DNA of 64,000 nt from positions 5,538-69,537 of the forward strand of contig JAITOF010000045.1 of the NCBI GenBank assembly GCA_031290095.1. The letters run 5' to 3'. Numbering within the stretch: position 1 is the stretch's first letter; every line of letters starts with the position of its first letter. Source of the DNA: Candidatus Methanoplasma porotermitis. Lineage in GTDB: Archaea > Thermoplasmatota > Thermoplasmata > Methanomassiliicoccales > Methanomethylophilaceae. Shown here in pieces: positions 3,260-61,459 of the stretch. Under the pieces are notes generated by a model, which did not search any database, was not told the origin of the DNA, and worked only from the letters and a program-made list of their open reading frames with translations. The position numbers were made by a program, and so were the translations under genes.

Positions 3260-3724
3260 ATGAGAAGAAAAACATACCTCATGAGAATAAACAGGAACAG
3301 GAAAGGCGGCATAGAAGGGTTGCCGTTGCAACTGATGATCGTCATAATAATCGCCACGATGGGCACTGCGATACTCGTCGGATGGATGGGCAACATCGAC
3401 ACTCCAAAGAGCATCGGCATGGTGGAAGTCGTCTCTGACGACATAGTTCTCGACGGCAACTCGACGGACAGCGCCGTGGTGGACATATTTGTGGCGGACC
3501 AGAACGGGAACCCTCTAAAAGGCGCCACCGTGGTCCTTTCAGGCCTGGGCATAACCGCTTCCGACGGGAAGACGGCGCATACCGTCACAGATCAGCAGGG
3601 GTACGCTCACTTCGACGGCCTCCGCGTGACGCTGAGAGGTTCTGAGATAGGATTCATAACGGTGAACGTCTCGATGTCGGAATACGGAGAGAACAACAAC
3701 ACAAGGGTGGCGGTGATAGCATGA
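3260..3724 (+). CDS. archaeal type IV pilin-like protein (class III signal peptide) with a CarboxypepD_reg/Ig-like domain
   Basis: The N-terminus ...MRINRNRKG-GIEGLPLQLMIVIIIATMGTAILVGW has a charged stretch, KG, then a hydrophobic helix. An alternative start at 3281 gives a short leader. The later segment VADQNGNPLKGATVVLSG...TDQQGYAHFDGL is typical of carboxypeptidase-regulatory-like beta-sandwich domains. Confidence 0.55.
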   Translation: MRRKTYLMRINRNRKGGIEGLPLQLMIVIIIATMGTAILVGWMGNIDTPKSIGMVEVVSDDIVLDGNSTDSAVVDIFVADQNGNPLKGATVVLSGLGITASDGKTAHTVTDQQGYAHFDGLRVTLRGSEIGFITVNVSMSEYGENNNTRVAVIA

Positions 3725-51762: not shown

Positions 51763-53470
51763 TCAAACAGCTTTTCGTCCCACGTTTGCATCAGTCTGCC
51801 CCTGCTGCGTGTCTGTGGCTATAGTCCAATGTCCTTTTCGTGACGAGCCTTCCCGCTTAACTGCCCCGGAGTCTTTCAATAGCTTCATGTTCCTTTTGAT
51901 ATTTCGTTCGTCGATCCCAACGTAACTTGCAAGGTTCGCCATCGTAATGGTTGGATTTGCTCTAATTGCTTCAATTATTTTTCTTTGGGTATCATTTACT
52001 TCAACGACGTTGTTAGTGACTGTGCGAACGTCACTGATGGGGCCATTTCTTGCATCGTTATATTTAGACGAGACGAAAAAGTTTGGCTTTACGCCGTCAA
52101 TCAGGTTGAGCGAGCGCAGGTGTTCGGCATCGGCATCGCCTATCTCCTTATGTTTCTGAACCATGTCAAGCAAAAATATCGTGTCCAAGTTTAATTCGGG
52201 GTGGTCGAACAGGATGTGTGTAGTTCGTGTCAAGCGTCTTCCCATACACGCGAGCGACGACCTTGCGGCTGTCGCCGTACTCGTAGTCAGGCAATGGGAA
52301 GAAACGGTCTTTCTGGACGCGGTACACCTTGCGTATTCCCATTGCCGCCGAATCTATCATGTTGAACAGCACCATCGTATCCGCGAGAAGCTGGTTCCTG
52401 TAATATGGCGAAGTGTATTCTGGCTTCAGCACTTTGGCGATGTTGCCAGGCAGGAAGTCGCCTGGGTTGGATATGGCGAGCCTGTCCTCGAACTCGTCGA
52501 GATATATGCGCCCGCCAATGGAATAGTCCATGTGGGCGATGGCGTTGTTCAAAAGCTCGCGACAAAGGCTCTCGTCGTATTGATCAGTCTCGAAGGTGGA
52601 CAGGGACTTCTTGTTTGGTATGTACCTATATGTGAGCTTGCGAACCATCCCGAACAGGCGGTCGACGACAGTGATGAACGGTATACGGAACTCGCGGTAG
52701 TCCAAGTCGACGTCGTTGCTCCCGTGCAGCCTCCACATCGCACGGGCCGGGGGTGACATCAGGTCGTCATGGTCGGGGTTGCCCAAGAGGACAAGGGCGG
52801 CGTTCGTGATCCTTCCACCCTCCATCAGCCGTATCTTCGTCAGGAACTCCTCGTCAGTCATGGCATCAACCTCTTTGCCGACGTGCGTCTTGTTAAGCTT
52901 GGCTTTGTAGCTGTTGCAGGCGATTGTCAGGGCCTCTGCGTCCAAGTGCTTAACGGACGAGCCGTCGATGAGCTGCTTCGACCAGTCGCGGCGCACCTGG
53001 CTGCGGATGCGGTCAAGTTCTTCGAGGGAGAGCTTGCCTATTGATTCGCCGTCGCGCCCATACCAGACACCTTTCCATGCAGTAGGTATGGCAACTACAG
53101 CGGCAGGGATTTTGAACATGACTACACGGTCGTCGCCGTCGTATACCTCAAAGACATCGATGAACGATATGCCCCCGGTAGTGTCTTGGGCAATTTCATG
53201 TTTAAGCGTTTCCAAGCCGCGTGCGTCTCTGTAATCCGAGCCGACGACCGCTTTGGCCTTGTTGCTCACGCCAAAGACGAGCCAGCCATACTGCAAGCCT
53301 TTCAGGTTCGCCTCGTTGCTGATCGCAGAGAAGTACTCTCCAATCTCATCGCGCTTGAAACTGTTGCTAGCCTCCTTGAACTCGACTACTTCGTTCTCCT
53401 AGTTCTCTATCAGCCCCCGCAGGATTCCGAGTAATTCCGAGTCTATGCCTATCATTGCAACTACATGCAT
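51763..53470 (-). pseudogene. AlbA_2 (Schlafen-type) + HATPase_c_4 + wHTH putative regulator, carrying one in-frame TAG and one frameshift
   Basis: From ATG 53470 the frame reads MHVVAMIGIDSELLGILRGLIEN-TAG(53399-53401)-ENEVVEFKEASNSF...GWLVFGV, the AlbA_2 N-terminus. The core is NNAIAHMDYS...ISNPGDF...RNQLLADTM. The frame is lost at a (TG)3 tract around 52215-52221, where ...YGKTLDTNYT switches frame into HILFDHPELNLDTIFLLDMVQK... A wHTH tail follows (RKIIEAIRANPTITMANLASYVGIDERNIKRNMKLLKDSGAV). Confidence 0.65.
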
Positions 53471-55382: not shown

Positions 55383-56306
55383 TCAGGCGTCCTGCGTCGC
55401 TCCGTTGCGGCCCTTATGGTTGAACAATGCGTTCTTTAGGCTGGCTTTAGCCGCGCTGTTGCCCGAAAGCACTCTTTTTGCGGAATCGGGAATGCCGTAA
55501 CGTATTATGTTGTCCGTCACCCCCACCTCGGCGCCCATCTCCTCTCTGACATGCTCATAATGGCGTACCGCCTCACCCATCACATCCCTCATTGACGACG
55601 TGATGCTGTAGATGTTGTGCGAAATGTATTCTGCCTTGTTTTGAAAGTCCGTGCAGTTCTGAAGGTACGGGTTGAACGTGCCGTTCATGTAGTCCTCGTC
55701 GAGATCGTCCACAGCGTCCATCACGTACACCATGGCGGCGAGCTCCCTCAGCAGGCCCGAGAGATGTTCTGAGCAACGGCCTCCTGCCAAAGACGCCAGT
55801 GGCCCGGCGACGGCTTCACCGAACGTCCTTCCCATCCGCACCGGGTCGGAGCATCCTTCCTCTTCCATCAAGCGCAAGGCCGTGAATCCGTCGCCGACGG
55901 CTCTGTCATACTCGGGATGTGTTTTTTCTGCCTTCGTTATCGCACGGTTGAGAGCCATGGATGCAAGATTGCTTTTCATAGTGCGATGATCGGTGCGATC
56001 GTCCATGAGCTCCCATTTCGTCAGTATCACCGTGTACGCGGCCATGCGCCTCATGATGTTGGAACTGCTGCTCGGCCTTCTCATAACGCACAGCGGAGAA
56101 CTCCGCGTTGTTCGGATGTCCGATCCCGCGCCAGACACCGAGTTCAGCATGATGGCGTTGAACGTCATGTCGTAATTGACCGTCGCGGCGGAAAGGAGGC
56201 CGAACCCTGACTTGAGCTGGTGGCACCCTTCACAGTAATATCTACGGTAAATCGAAAGGTTCGAGGCCGACAGCCGACTGTACAAGGGCACCACATAACC
56301 GAACAT
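55383..56306 (-). CDS. DUF5685-like protein (N-terminal Cys motif plus helical domain with Asp-rich motif)
   Basis: Start taken at MFGYVVPLYSRLSASNLSIYRRYYCEGCHQL, which matches my recollection of the MFGY...YC.xC N-terminus of DUF5685. The Asp-rich motif is MDAVDDLDEDYMNGTFNPY. It is divergent from the Cys-rich ORF and radical SAM pair. The family assignment is from memory, not a search. Confidence 0.5.
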   Translation of the reverse strand: MFGYVVPLYSRLSASNLSIYRRYYCEGCHQLKSGFGLLSAATVNYDMTFNAIMLNSVSGAGSDIRTTRSSPLCVMRRPSSSSNIMRRMAAYTVILTKWELMDDRTDHRTMKSNLASMALNRAITKAEKTHPEYDRAVGDGFTALRLMEEEGCSDPVRMGRTFGEAVAGPLASLAGGRCSEHLSGLLRELAAMVYVMDAVDDLDEDYMNGTFNPYLQNCTDFQNKAEYISHNIYSITSSMRDVMGEAVRHYEHVREEMGAEVGVTDNIIRYGIPDSAKRVLSGNSAAKASLKNALFNHKGRNGATQDA

Positions 56307-56333
56307 GTCGTCGCCGTATTGACTATCAGAATC

Positions 56334-56342
56334 TTTAATATA
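56334..56342. promoter_or_regulatory. TATA-like element in the divergent intergenic region
   Basis: tttaatata lies about 55 nt upstream of the ATG at 56396 and about 30 nt upstream of the minus-strand ATG at 56306. It could serve either or both divergent units. Pattern only. Confidence 0.3.
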
Positions 56343-56395
56343 TCCGTAGGGTTTACTCGGAAACGTACCCGCTGGCATGGCGGACAGGTGAATTG

Positions 56396-56698
56396 ATGAC
56401 GCAGGATGCAGTTACCGTTGAACATTTGACCGCGCTCTATATGAATCAGTCTCCAGCGGCCTTCGTGTCTGTTGCAATGTCTGCGCACTCGGACGGGCCG
56501 CAGGACCACTCCAAACGCCGGGACGAAGAAACTCACGGCGGCGACTCTGGATGCGACTACCCCTGTTGTAACGAGAAGGGGTGCTGTTCCTCCGGAGGAT
56601 GGTATCTGTGCCTATGCGGATGCATCGTGGTGCTTGTGGCGTTCTGTTGCTACATCACCAACGGCTTCAACGGCGTCTGGACATATTGGCCGTTCTGA
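56396..56698 (+). CDS. 100-aa Cys-rich small protein / candidate RiPP precursor
   Basis: AGGTGA lies 4 nt upstream of the ATG, and the stop is 1 nt before the radical SAM ATG. The C-terminal 48 aa are CDYPCCNEKGCCSSGGWYLCLCGCIVVLVAFCCYITNGFNGVWTYWPF (10 Cys, verified codon by codon). Confidence 0.5.
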   Translation: MTQDAVTVEHLTALYMNQSPAAFVSVAMSAHSDGPQDHSKRRDEETHGGDSGCDYPCCNEKGCCSSGGWYLCLCGCIVVLVAFCCYITNGFNGVWTYWPF

Positions 56699-56699
56699 G

Positions 56700-57839
56700 A
56701 TGAAACCGTTCATCTCGGTCATTATCAAACCAACTCTGGCCTGCAACATAGGCTGCAGGCATTGTTACCACCCTCCCGAGGAAAGGACGGGCGGGTCTAT
56801 AAGCCTCGAGACCCTGGACAGGTTGTTCCGCCTTCTTTCTGAGGAATACGAGTCTACATGGTTCATATGGCACGGGGGAGAGCCGCTGATGCTCTCTCCG
56901 CAGTTCTACCGCGATGCCATCGCCATGCAGGAGAGGTATTTTGGCAAGGGGTCTCACCGCGTAGGCAATACGATACAGACCAACGGCATACGCCTGAACA
57001 AGAGATTCATGGACTTGTGCCGTGAGAAGAAGATCAACGTGGGCGTCTCCTATGAAGGCCCTCGAAACGACGTCCTGAGGGAGCGGACGTCTGAAGTAGA
57101 AAATAATCTGGACATGCTGATAAAAAGGGAGCATGTGTTCTCAGTGGGCCTGACAGTGTCGTCGGACACGGCATCGGAGCAGGCCTCGCTCTACGAGCAC
57201 TTCCGAGACCGCCACATAGCCGTCTCGTTCTCTCCCGTGATTCCCGCAGGGTGCGCCGCGTCATGTCCCGGGCTCGTTCCGGACGTAGACGAATATGTCA
57301 GAGGGAGCATTGACGCCTTCGACCTATGGCTCACGGACACGGACACGGAAATACCGTTGATGCCTCACTACCTGTATCTTTTGAACGCTCTGGGCGAGCC
57401 TTCCGAGTCTGACTGCGCCCACAGCTCGTGTCTCACCAAATGGCTGTGCGTCTATCCTGACGGGAGCCTGTACCCCTGTGCAAAAGGCTGTATTCCCGAA
57501 TTCAGGATGTGCGGCCTGGAAGATGTAGAACACATATCGGACACGTTCCTCACCGACGGCTTCAGGAGGATGCTCGCAGGCACGATAGCAAGGAGGGAGA
57601 AATGCAGGTCGTGCGACATATTCGACCACTGCGGCGGAGGATGCAGCATGGACGCATGTTATGAGGAAGGGCTGGAGAACAACGGCAACCCTTCATGCAG
57701 AATCTACAAAGAGCTGTTCACTCAAATAAAAGACAGGGCAGACCGCATCGTCAGCGAGAAAAGGAACCTTTCCGAGTACAACAAATTCGTCCGGGACGCC
57801 GTGACCGGAAGGCTCATAGACCCGACGATGCCGCTGTGA
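56700..57839 (+). CDS. radical SAM enzyme with C-terminal SPASM domain (anSME/peptide-maturase-like)
   Basis: The N-terminus MKPFISVIIKPTLACNIGCRHCY carries the CxxxCxxC motif. GGEPLM is present. The SPASM motifs are CVYPDGSLYPC and CRSCDIFDHCGGGC (Cx2Cx5Cx3C), with a further Cys (PSCRIY). Confidence 0.85.
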   Translation: MKPFISVIIKPTLACNIGCRHCYHPPEERTGGSISLETLDRLFRLLSEEYESTWFIWHGGEPLMLSPQFYRDAIAMQERYFGKGSHRVGNTIQTNGIRLNKRFMDLCREKKINVGVSYEGPRNDVLRERTSEVENNLDMLIKREHVFSVGLTVSSDTASEQASLYEHFRDRHIAVSFSPVIPAGCAASCPGLVPDVDEYVRGSIDAFDLWLTDTDTEIPLMPHYLYLLNALGEPSESDCAHSSCLTKWLCVYPDGSLYPCAKGCIPEFRMCGLEDVEHISDTFLTDGFRRMLAGTIARREKCRSCDIFDHCGGGCSMDACYEEGLENNGNPSCRIYKELFTQIKDRADRIVSEKRNLSEYNKFVRDAVTGRLIDPTMPL

Positions 57840-59950: not shown

Positions 59951-61171
59951 TCATTGGCCCTCCAGCAGCCATTTGATCACGTTCTTGTGTTTTATTCCCC
60001 CGGGGACGTTGTAGACGAAGCTGTCCATGGACAGCACCGTCTTCGAATAGCTGTCACGTATTTCGGACAGGGAAGAAACCTCGCGGTCATACGTACACTC
60101 GTCGATCATCGTCTTTGTGACCTGATAATACTCCGTCTCCGCGCCTTTCCTTGCGGTGAAGTCGACCTCCCTGTCTCCGTATTTTCCAACGGCGACCTCG
60201 TATCCTCTTCTTATGAGCTCCAGATAGACGATGTTCTCTATCTGCCTGCTGTCGTCCTCTTTGGACGATATCCCCACGACGGCGTTGCGCATCCCGGTGT
60301 CCGCCACGTAGTATTTCTCCAAGGTTTGAAGCAGCTTTTTCCCGCGAATGTCATAGCGCTCCGCCTTGTATATGACATACGCCTCCTCCAATGCTTGGAG
60401 GTATCTCCCGACGGTCTTGTTGTTGACCTCGCCGTGCTCGTCGGCGAGGTACGTCTTGGCGATGTTGTTGGAGCTGGTGACGCAACCGATGTTGGACATG
60501 ACGAACCGGGCTACGTTTATCAGCGTGCGGGAGTCTTTGGCGTCCGTGTGAGTAAGCACGTCGCGTACCAGGACGGTGTCGAAGACGCCTTTCAGCTGGT
60601 CATGGACGAACGTCTCGTCGGCGGAAGGGTCCACCATCGGCAGGGACCCCTTCCAAACATAATCGTGAAACCTGGATTCGACGTTGTTCTCGGCGTCGGC
60701 CGGGTGCATGTCCAAATATTCCCTAAAAGACAGCGGGAGCATCCTGATTTGAACGTATCTCCCTGACATGTATGTCGCAAGCTCGGACGAAAGGAGATGC
60801 GCATTGGACCCTGTTATGTATATGTCCACATCGAAATCGACCATGAGCGCATTGACTGCCCTTTCCCACTCGGGTATCCTCTGCAGCTCGTCCAGCAGGA
60901 TGTACGACCTTTCGTTGCGCGGGACCATCCCGTCTATCTGGTTCACAAGGTCCCCGTATGTTCTAATATGGCCATATTCCATCGATTCGAAGTTAATCAG
61001 GATCACGCGGCCCTCATCCACTCCCGAATCCACGAGTGCGCGTGCATACTGCTTCATCAACGTGGACTTCCCGCACCTTCTGACCCCCGTGATTATCTTC
61101 ACCGTGTGCGTGCGGTCCCTTCCCACCGAAAGGCACGAGATATACGTGTGCCTGACGACTTCCTTCTCCAT
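59951..61171 (-). CDS. AAA+ ATPase with C-terminal DUF4143-like domain
   Basis: Walker A GVRRCGKSTL and Walker B YILLDELQ. The C-terminal EVDFTA...YYQV segment is typical of the restriction-endonuclease-like DUF4143 module. Confidence 0.7.
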   Translation of the reverse strand: MEKEVVRHTYISCLSVGRDRTHTVKIITGVRRCGKSTLMKQYARALVDSGVDEGRVILINFESMEYGHIRTYGDLVNQIDGMVPRNERSYILLDELQRIPEWERAVNALMVDFDVDIYITGSNAHLLSSELATYMSGRYVQIRMLPLSFREYLDMHPADAENNVESRFHDYVWKGSLPMVDPSADETFVHDQLKGVFDTVLVRDVLTHTDAKDSRTLINVARFVMSNIGCVTSSNNIAKTYLADEHGEVNNKTVGRYLQALEEAYVIYKAERYDIRGKKLLQTLEKYYVADTGMRNAVVGISSKEDDSRQIENIVYLELIRRGYEVAVGKYGDREVDFTARKGAETEYYQVTKTMIDECTYDREVSSLSEIRDSYSKTVLSMDSFVYNVPGGIKHKNVIKWLLEGQ

Positions 61172-61459
61172 GAACGACAATGCTGCATTGTTAAAAAGTT
61201 TTGGTATTACAATCCCTAAACTCATAAAAATCATATACTTTCGGTATTAAAATACCTAAACTTTTGAACAAAAACGAAACACGGCGCAGATTGAAGCCGC
61301 ATTGGATCTGGCAGGCCGTCTGGTGCGAGGCTTTGGGAAGCCATGTGAGGACGTTCTTGTACAATAACCGCCGGCGTCGTTCTACGTGCGGAAAGCGGTC
61401 GTGGCTTCCCTAAGCCATCATTCAGTCAGTCTTTAATACGAACGTCATATAGAGGTGGC

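Follow-up and report, generated by a model that had tools for sequence, protein, structure and literature searches.

What does a radical S-adenosylmethionine (SAM) enzyme of the SPASM type act on when the gene directly before its own encodes a small Cys-rich protein and the gene transcribed away from both belongs to the family DUF5685? The locus that raises this question lies in a stretch of 64,000 nucleotides (the window, to which all coordinates refer unless a locus is named) of contig JAITOF010000045.1 of Candidatus Methanoplasma porotermitis. An earlier note, made from the letters of this DNA, had read the small open reading frame (ORF) and the enzyme as precursor and maturase of a peptide that is made ribosomally and modified post-translationally (RiPP), carried by an inserted cassette. 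We find instead that the three genes make up a module that is inherited vertically and is specific to Methanomassiliicoccales of the Methanomethylophilaceae type, and that the 100-aa ORF encodes a genuine protein under strong constraint. As to function, the reading that we favor, and hold with about even confidence, is housekeeping maturation, in which a radical SAM enzyme resembling the anaerobic sulfatase-maturating enzymes (anSMEs) would modify a small tail-anchored protein, DUF5685 would act on or with it, and the protein would reside in the membrane. The features on which the argument turns are as follows.

55383 to 56306, minus strand: DUF5685 gene (PF18937), 307 aa from the conserved MFGY start
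56307 to 56395, no strand: divergent intergenic spacer of 89 nt, with a TATA-like box, a short hairpin and a Shine-Dalgarno (SD)-like motif
56396 to 56698, plus strand: gene of the small Cys-rich protein, 100 aa, candidate substrate, recognized by its orthologues and pN/pS
56396 to 56485, plus strand: N-terminal leader-like region, residues 1-30, with the near-invariant motif L11-x3-Y15-x2-Q18-S19-P20-x2-F23
56552 to 56587, plus strand: juxtamembrane Cys knot, residues 53-64, C53-x3-C57-C58-x3-G62-x-C64, read from the residue spectrum of each column
56591 to 56653, plus strand: Cys-rich hydrophobic helix, residues 66-86, predicted to be transmembrane by Kyte-Doolittle hydropathy and AlphaFold2 (AF2)
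56654 to 56695, plus strand: aromatic C-terminal tail, residues 87-100, x-T-x-G-F-x-G-x-W-(T/P)-Y-W-P-F, near-invariant
56700 to 57839, plus strand: radical SAM/SPASM enzyme gene, 379 aa, anSME-like, without an N-terminal RiPP recognition element (RRE)
56742 to 56765, plus strand: CxxxCxxC radical SAM motif (C15, C19, C22), invariant in the orthologue alignment
57414 to 57698, plus strand: SPASM region, residues 239-333 (TIGR04085 at 247-333), with invariant Cys

A small, probably membrane-anchored protein and its coupling to the enzyme

The small ORF (56396-56698) comprises 100 codons, with 10 Cys within its last 48 residues, and its TGA (56696-56698) is separated by a single base from the ATG of the radical SAM gene at 56700; the coordinates, the Cys count and the 1-nt spacing recorded in the earlier note were all correct on rechecking. 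This density of Cys is not by itself beyond chance: among its 537 ORFs the window holds one more, clearly out of frame, with 10 Cys packed into 48 residues, and it is by its conservation, not by its Cys, that the small ORF is recognized as a real gene. The other ORF (3345-3584, minus strand) is rich in Arg, Pro and Cys, has the appearance of GC-rich coding DNA translated in a wrong frame, and was judged an artefact.

Conservation was assessed by scanning one genome per species of GTDB for relatives of the radical SAM enzyme. At least 111 species genomes encode one, and only Methanomassiliicoccales appear among them; the best 80, together with four context loci and the window, formed a locus set that was searched by profile for all three proteins. 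A small ORF lies upstream of the radical SAM gene, on the same strand, in 85/85 loci that cover the region (81 distinct peptide sequences), with a gap of 1 to 53 nt between its stop and the start of the enzyme, and in no locus is this junction interrupted. The sole locus without it, L040, is one whose DNA starts at codon 4 of the enzyme. The precursor-then-maturase layout proposed for the window, as well as the presence of a conserved ORF ahead of orthologous enzyme genes, on which that proposal had been staked, therefore hold throughout the set.

Coding conservation, the second point on which the earlier note had staked its proposal, was found as well. A codon analysis of 67 distinct long-form sequences gave a proportion of synonymous differences (pS) of 0.64, which is saturated, against a proportion of nonsynonymous differences (pN) of 0.27 (pN/pS ~0.4). 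Purifying selection spans the whole protein, the N-terminal "leader" included, and the C-terminal tail is its most constrained part (pN/pS 0.23). When 1.84 billion representative proteins were searched exhaustively by profile, only five real clusters came up, so the peptide family is confined to this lineage. No precursor model of NCBIfam matched the small ORF, and Pfam returned neither a CYSTM nor a DnaJ cysteine-string match for the protein; DUF6458, the Pfam family that did come up, was rejected because its 19.8 bits fall under the cut-off of 27.

The peptide gene has its own conserved promoter-like box and SD motif. In the window, a TATA-like box lies at about 56334-56343 and an SD-like AGGTGA at 56386-56391; among 69 distinct upstream regions, a TATA-like box with at least 7/8 matches occurs in 62, usually 57 to 66 nt before the ATG, and an SD-like motif in 66. 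Between the two in the window lies a short hairpin (56369-56383, stem CCGCT/GGCGG). The hairpin stems are lineage-specific (CCTATCC/GGATAGG, ACCGA/TCGGT, ATCAG/CTGAT, GCCA/TGGC), with a loop that is often GCCAGC and a median z of -1.3; RNAalifold found no consensus structure in the alignment of the 5' untranslated regions (UTRs), in which loop lengths vary, and the 5' region had no match in Rfam. The hairpin may be a regulatory or stabilizing stem-loop of the 5' UTR. A scan for sigma-70 promoters and intrinsic terminators was set aside as uninformative for an archaeon.

What kind of protein is it? AF2 predicts low-confidence helices at residues 4-16 and 20-31, and the stretch of residues 31-52 is a variable acidic linker. 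In the Cys knot that comes after it, C53, C57, C58 and C64 are invariant in 67/67 sequences, and G62 is invariant, too. The Cys pattern emphasized in the earlier note is largely kept. The hydrophobic helix is a constant of the family: the best 19-residue Kyte-Doolittle mean is 1.60 to 2.74 in 81/81 sequences, none of which has a Lys or Arg after the helix while a median of 5 precede it, and 9 to 15 residues, mostly 12 to 15, follow it. In the AF2 model, helix 67-90 has the highest predicted local distance difference test score (pLDDT). By prediction, then, the protein has no N-terminal signal sequence, a single helix near its C terminus and positive charges on the N-terminal side, the features of a tail anchor, and it probably is a tail-anchored membrane protein of N-in/C-out orientation.

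Not all of its Cys residues are alike. C84, C85 and Y86, at the end of the helix, are invariant or nearly so, and at positions 72, 80, 81 and 83 within it Cys exchanges with Leu, Val, Ala, Phe and Ile. A model in which every Cys is a cross-link site was ruled out by these exchanges of Cys for aliphatic residues at positions 72-83. To judge from the aligned columns, about half of the Cys that first drew attention to the ORF behave as hydrophobic filler, and it is six Cys and the aromatic tail that are truly constrained. In that tail, G90, F91, G93, W95, Y97, W98, P99 and F100 are invariant in an alignment of 36 sequences; across the 67, G90, W98 and P99 remain invariant and F91, G93, W95, Y97 and F100 are kept in 60 to 66.

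The divergent neighbor, described in the earlier note as DUF5685-like, is a true member of PF18937 (157 bits against a cut-off of 26.7, profile positions 1-270 of 272, a full-length match) and a near-constant companion, on the strand opposite to the peptide in 77/77 loci where it was detected and usually at 89 to 350 nt from the peptide start. Since all DUF5685 orthologues begin with MFGY (alignment of 29), the true start in the window is 56306 and not the ATG at 56378, which makes the spacer 89 nt long. The figure of ~90 nt given earlier for this spacer stands, and the AT-richness ascribed to it is only mild (48% GC against 57% for the window). The longest DUF5685 ORF (55383-56378, minus strand) begins 24 codons upstream of the MFGY start, and automatic start calls are inconsistent, one public call for the identical protein being truncated to 220 aa (P0154). 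The junction between DUF5685 and the peptide can also be broken: in L003/L004 (3039-4442) a DUF1016/YhcG-type nuclease gene pair sits between them, and L029, L033 and L038 carry similar inserts of 1.6 to 2.3 kb, which marks this junction as a recurrent insertion site.

Each of the three genes is single-copy within the window, and their GC content (0.55-0.56) is the same as that of the window (57%). The gene order isochorismatase-GNAT-PDT-DUF5685-peptide-rSAM-RidA-HTS-CobA-MFS-CDF, in which rSAM is the radical SAM gene and PDT is prephenate dehydratase, is found in the window, in strain BRNA1 and in two other distant relatives. PDT, RidA and HTS (metA) are indeed the flanking genes, as had been stated; the conclusion drawn from them, that the module is an inserted cassette, is not borne out, the same flanks being kept in distant relatives and the GC being that of its surroundings. 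The module is an ancestral one, passed on by vertical descent. In agreement with the earlier note, the conserved block of ~10 kb, to which the search was confined, contains no sulfatase gene, and the module includes neither a protease nor a dedicated exporter, its conserved neighbors being PDT, RidA, HTS and CobA. The transporter genes that do lie nearby (MatE, MFS and CDF) belong to the long-range synteny, MFS and CDF being several kilobases off.

The radical SAM/SPASM enzyme

The cluster motifs that had been picked out in the earlier note were upheld by hidden Markov models: PF04055 (Radical_SAM) scores 52.2 bits against a cut-off of 29.5, and TIGR04085 (SPASM, NCBIfam) 33.6 bits against 27. 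The enzyme carries CNIGCRHC at residues 15-22, CVYPDGSLYPC at 250-260 and CRSCDIFDHCGGGC at 302-315. The SPASM region holds nine invariant Cys (C239, C244, C250, C260, C302, C305, C311, C315 and C333), and the 7-Cys SPASM pattern is complete and invariant throughout (C250-x4-G-x4-C260, C302-x2-C305-x5-C311-x3-C315, C333). On alignment to anSME, this number of Cys suffices for two fully ligated auxiliary [4Fe-4S] clusters. There is an invariant Cys at every anSME auxiliary-ligand position, which by analogy does not point to the open Aux I site that has been proposed for sactisynthases, an argument to which we give low weight.

Its affinities are with enzymes that act on peptides and proteins. 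The best PDB match is the anSME 4K36, to which it aligns over its full length with 93 bits, and the best NCBIfam match is the anSME model TIGR03942, with 137.2 bits against a cut-off of 349 (PRK13758, 97.9 against 441). DynA (133 bits) and TIGR04083 (119 bits) come next, and DarW, GrrM, CbpB, YhhB, FxsB, DarE and PapB match more weakly. The 25 NCBIfam families among the matches listed are all of SPASM enzymes that modify peptides or proteins; the scores of the enzyme against such family models lie two- to thirty-fold under the curated cut-offs. Maturase models of the sactipeptide and ranthipeptide kind fare no better, PapB, ScfB, CcpM, TIGR04463 and CefB giving 71, 47, 28, 37 and 31 bits against cut-offs of 340 to 600. 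An N-terminal RRE (PqqD-like) is absent, the radical SAM motif beginning at residue 15 and the matches to the sactipeptide, ranthipeptide and SCIFF models at profile positions 83-93.

Sequence comparison thus makes this an anSME-like SPASM enzyme outside every named family. It resembles anSME (4K36), its closest relative by sequence, in architecture: the radical SAM motif stands at the extreme N terminus, an RRE is lacking, and the SPASM domain is complete, with Cys for two fully ligated auxiliary clusters. The substrate of anSME, moreover, is a protein and not a peptide guided by a leader. It differs in scoring under the family cut-off, in having no sulfatase at the locus and no C/SxPxR motif in its presumed partner, and in its strict coupling to the small ORF. 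A search for homologues gave 294 at E ≤ 1e-10, and the 120 of them that were listed are all from Methanomassiliicoccales, at 55 to 80% identity, with representatives from Ca. Methanoplasma, Methanomethylophilaceae and strain BRNA1; the BRNA1 homologue is annotated as "Arylsulfatase regulator." Since the enzyme stands outside all curated maturase families, its chemistry could be new.

DUF5685 and Cys-rich segments in bacteria and archaea

In the literature searched, DUF5685 turns up in a single paper, as a passing mention. The archaeal members share C25-x2-C28-H29, C73, D102-D103-x2-D106 and D197-x2-D200-D201-x3-D205; when archaeal and bacterial members are aligned, C25, C28, C73, D102, D106, D197, D201, D205, N212 and P213 remain invariant. 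C25, C28 and C73 may form a Cys3 (His) metal site. The two acidic motifs sit on separate helices with i/i+4(/i+8) spacing. The AF2 model is all-alpha (pLDDT 84.6, predicted TM-score 0.84), and the 50 PDB entries that Foldseek ranks highest for it include about 48 synthases of the trans-isoprenyl diphosphate, terpene or squalene kind, all of them weak matches (E 0.011 to 0.4, TM-score at most 0.51). As modeled, DUF5685 would have an isoprenoid-synthase-like all-alpha fold, along with its two acidic motifs.

A fold of this kind would have precedents. The prenyltransferases ComQ, PalQ, the P domain of ChrPC and Ord1, which are like trans-isoprenyl diphosphate synthases (trans-IDSs), combine an isoprenoid-synthase fold and two Asp-rich motifs with ribosomal-peptide substrates (PMC13290415), and a Gln just upstream of the second Asp-rich motif is said to define Trp recognition in them (PMC13290415). 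Ord1 (9v4h, a Trp farnesyltransferase) is among the Foldseek matches of DUF5685, and the small archaeal protein offers two Trp of the invariant type. The likeness has its limits: we found no relation between these enzymes and DUF5685 at the sequence level, DUF5685 has Val, Ala or Ile at the Gln position (DAVDDL, DAADDL, DAIEDY), and the feature that DUF5685 partners share family-wide is a Cys-rich tail, not Trp.

That feature emerged from a bacterial sample made up of every tblastn find in a plasmid/chromid collection and of related gut-metagenome loci. In 8/8 bacterial lineages sampled (a small sample, mostly of plasmid/chromid records), a Cys-rich tail is fused or adjacent to DUF5685. In Oscillospiraceae, the DUF5685 gene is followed, often with overlap, by that of a ~205-aa J-domain protein with 7 to 9 Cys in its last 35 residues, a hydrophobic "cysteine string" (for example, ...FGTDLCGSNLCLPMCCLWSLCSGSVPICCYC); this arrangement occurs in Pusillibacter, in Subdoligranulum and in no fewer than four other lineages, and it is kept while the identity of DUF5685 to the Pusillibacter protein ranges from 39 to 100%. 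DNAJC5 is the cysteine-string protein of eukaryotes, and CYSTM is a Cys-rich, membrane-associated C-terminal module, also eukaryotic. The bacterial partner, a J-domain protein with a C-terminal Cys string, resembles DNAJC5 in form, whereas no homology of either CYSTM or DNAJC5 to the archaeal small protein was detected and lipidation of the prokaryotic tails is hypothetical. Among Actinomycetota (Nonomuraea, two strains of Nocardia, and Tsukamurella), it is DUF5685 itself that bears a fused C-terminal tail rich in Cys, Asp and Gly, as many as 18 Cys falling within the last 60 residues and a single Trp preceding each fused tail, and the DUF5685 of Chondrinema (Bacteroidota) has an internal insert with ~25 Cys.

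A related change is seen within the archaea. In one subclade, the N terminus of the peptide is short and different (...YTRQLPDVLPENYNEA...) and the tail ends in WTYWPN; in the same subclade, DUF5685 has gained a Cys-containing insert of ~25 residues that adjoins the second acidic motif, after it. Here it seems that peptide and DUF5685 changed jointly, probably in a single evolutionary event. The loci concerned are these.

L086 6001-7508, L089 6001-7570, and L090-L169 (e.g., L098 3001-4517): DUF5685 with J-domain protein, Oscillospiraceae
L170 2501-3679, L171 2501-3577, L172 2501-3502, L087 6001-7008, and L088 6001-7257: DUF5685 with fused tail or insert
L023, L024, L026, L031, L034, L066, L077 and L081 (also L063 and L064): subclade with the WTYWPN peptide

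The recurrent partnering or fusion of DUF5685 with Cys-rich segments argues for a functional link to the archaeal Cys knot. Such a segment may be either a substrate of DUF5685, for lipidation, or a metal-binding accessory of it.

Proposed function and rival explanations

In the housekeeping reading, the small protein is the substrate of the radical SAM enzyme. Tail-anchored topology implies post-translational insertion, so that the whole chain would first be available to cytoplasmic enzymes. The enzyme would bind it directly, with no RRE, in the manner of anSME; the 5'-deoxyadenosyl radical would abstract a hydrogen atom, and an intramolecular cross-link or an oxidation would follow, for which C53, C57, C58, C64, C84 and C85, or the W95/Y97/W98 tail, are the likely sites. 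DUF5685 would be a second partner on or with the Cys-rich segment, either by alkylation or lipidation from a prenyl diphosphate or by metal handling. The mature product, made up of an acidic cytoplasmic N-terminal part with LxxxYxxQSPxxF, a four-Cys knot, a single Cys-rich transmembrane helix and a 14-residue aromatic tail beyond the membrane, would stay in the cell membrane in a housekeeping role rather than leave the cell as an antimicrobial.

There is precedent for a SPASM enzyme whose product is retained. QhpC, of quinohemoprotein amine dehydrogenase, is a small Cys- and Trp-containing subunit that is cross-linked by the SPASM radical SAM enzyme QhpD and then retained as a working protein of the cell rather than exported as an antibiotic. 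The present pair is like it in joining a small Cys/Trp protein to a SPASM enzyme, with a product that would remain in the cell. It is unlike it in that the enzyme scores 45 bits against a cut-off of 453 for the QhpD model, that no dehydrogenase subunits, QhpE protease or QhpG flavoprotein lie nearby, and that the peptide is predicted to be membrane-anchored. For the tail, the maturases of darobactin and dynobactin (DarE, DynA) and the three-residue cyclophane maturases XyeB, GrrM, FxsB and YhhB, which cross-link aromatic residues near the precursor C terminus, are a further comparison, DynA being the second-best model (133 bits) and W-T-Y-W-P-F offering aromatic-x-x motifs; here, however, the scores fall far under the cut-offs, the precursor is much larger and Cys-rich, and the module has no transporter.

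Several observations weigh against the housekeeping reading. The status of the small protein as substrate is argued from gene order and precedent, and its AF2 model is of low confidence (pLDDT 57). Since Cys residues inside the helix swap with aliphatic ones, most of the Cys that drew attention to the ORF are unlikely cross-link sites. The Foldseek support for the DUF5685 fold is weak (best E 0.011, TM-score at most 0.51), a Pfam scan of 29 members at E ≤ 10 returned no family of isoprenoid synthases, and a search of PDB sequences with the DUF5685 profile gave no isoprenoid synthase at E ≤ 10, only noise (E ≥ 0.24). The bacterial DUF5685 genes sampled have no radical SAM neighbor, so DUF5685 may be independent of the radical SAM step, and the fused Cys/Asp/Gly-rich tails are metallothionein-like, which fits metal binding at least as well as a substrate role. 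Even among the archaea, a few loci have 0.6 to 2.3 kb inserted between DUF5685 and the peptide, and L067 has no DUF5685 within 4 kb.

Systems in which a small ORF lies upstream of, and is paired with, a radical SAM/SPASM gene are of a kind already known. What is not described in the sources searched is the peptide family, its membrane-anchor architecture, an enzyme outside the curated families, clade-wide vertical inheritance in gut methanogens and the partnership with DUF5685; the literature searched held no description of such a module, in line with the earlier remark that no characterized archaeal equivalent with this type of precursor is known. The hosts are methylotrophic methanogens of human, ruminant and termite guts, and a clade-wide, lineage-specific modified membrane peptide would, if real, be a new piece of gut-methanogen cell biology that could serve as a marker or target. 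For the widespread DUF5685, the putative isoprenoid-synthase-like fold and the recurrent partnership with Cys-rich tails in bacteria and archaea provide a first functional lead.

That lead can be extended into a bolder proposal, which we put forward as speculative and regard as doubtful. DUF5685 would be an unrecognized family of bacterial and archaeal enzymes, of isoprenoid-synthase fold, that covalently modify Cys-rich tails (or the adjacent Trp), for example, by S-prenylation to give lipid anchors. In Clostridia it would act on the J-domain cysteine-string proteins, in Actinomycetota and Bacteroidota on the tails fused to itself, and in Methanomethylophilaceae on the small protein, where radical SAM cross-linking would be added and the outcome would be a lipidated, cross-linked membrane peptide, specific to these gut methanogens, with a housekeeping, possibly redox- or metal-related, role. 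If the partnership does mean protein lipidation, prokaryotes would have an equivalent of the Cys-string and prenyl anchoring of eukaryotes.

How far, then, does the original idea of a classical RiPP survive? Under it, the first ~50 residues would be a leader, the enzyme would install Cys thioethers of the sactionine or ranthionine type, the leader would be removed and a bacteriocin-like or signal peptide released, with DUF5685 as a tailoring enzyme. The order of precursor and maturase and the leader-like conserved N-terminal motif speak for it, as does the relation of the SPASM enzyme to many peptide maturases, PapB, SCIFF, CcpM and TIGR04463 among them. SCIFF provides a precedent that a Cys-rich peptide modified by a radical SAM enzyme can be clade-wide and vertically inherited, and the SCIFF-maturase pairs of Clostridia (ScfA/ScfB; CteB) share with our module a short Cys-rich peptide beside a SPASM enzyme, clade-wide vertical inheritance and no obvious exporter. 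Yet the enzyme scores 46.9 bits against a cut-off of 425 for the SCIFF maturase and has no N-terminal RRE, and the peptide is twice as long, has a predicted transmembrane helix and an invariant aromatic tail, matches no precursor model, and is partnered by DUF5685. More generally, the conserved block has neither protease nor dedicated exporter gene, the radical SAM motif begins at residue 15, and every sactipeptide or ranthipeptide maturase model gives 27 to 71 bits against cut-offs of 340 to 855. The gene is single-copy in the window, and purifying selection acts over its full length, "leader" included; the Cys of the hydrophobic stretch, or "core," are not positionally conserved, and the stretch itself scores as a transmembrane helix. 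All four positions corresponding to the anSME Aux I ligands are apparently Cys, which by analogy does not suggest an open iron site of the kind proposed for sactisynthases. Thioether chemistry is favored by none of the family comparisons. We consider a RiPP of the classical secreted type unlikely.

It is also possible that the small protein is no substrate but a membrane anchor or an Fe-S or metal partner that tethers the soluble radical SAM enzyme, and DUF5685 with it, to the membrane, where the two would alter a lipid of the isoprenoid class or some other small hydrophobic compound. Among SPASM radical SAM enzymes, action on archaeal lipids is known (Gms; PMC11186832), and the isoprenoid-synthase-like fold suggested for DUF5685, the predicted transmembrane helix and the metal-binding look of the invariant four-Cys knot would suit such a role. 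The N-terminal helical domain described for Gms (PMC11186832), however, is missing from our enzyme, and the 25 NCBIfam families among its listed matches all act on peptides or proteins. Furthermore, what accompanies DUF5685 in bacteria is not a lipid enzyme but a soluble J-domain protein or a fused tail, and the invariant aromatic tail would sit across the membrane from the enzyme. On balance this alternative seems unlikely.

We regard as highly improbable that the enzyme is an ordinary anSME whose substrate is encoded elsewhere, the small ORF lying next to it by mere inherited synteny. The anSME families do supply the top NCBIfam match (137 bits) and the top, full-length PDB match (93 bits), as well as the annotation in BRNA1. 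But these scores are far under the equivalog cut-offs of 349 and 441, DynA is nearly equal at 133 bits, there is no sulfatase gene in the neighborhood, and the small protein lacks the C/S-x-P/A-x-R sulfatase motif. In addition, the gap between the two genes stays at or below 53 nt in 85/85 loci, from lineages whose synonymous sites are saturated. Last, a chance Cys-rich frame in GC-rich DNA, for which the other, out-of-frame window ORF with 10 Cys in 48 residues might be cited, is refuted by 81 distinct orthologues with invariant motifs, by pN/pS ~0.4 at saturated pS and by the conserved SD and TATA-like motifs.

Two interruptions of the flanking synteny were noted in passing. An AAA_14/DUF4143 ATPase gene (59951-61234, minus strand) and a gene pair of HTH and HATPase_c_4 type (51763-53296, minus strand) each break the gene order otherwise shared with L001, L003 and L005, and both blocks are likely local insertions of accessory genes. 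Finally, seven loci with the archaeal synteny (L029, L033, L036, L037, L079, L080 and L082) come from bins titled Lachnospiraceae, Bifidobacteriaceae, Bacteroides ovatus, Ruminococcus, Bacteroidaceae and Firmicutes; these bacterial-titled contigs are probably mis-binned or mislabeled in public assemblies.

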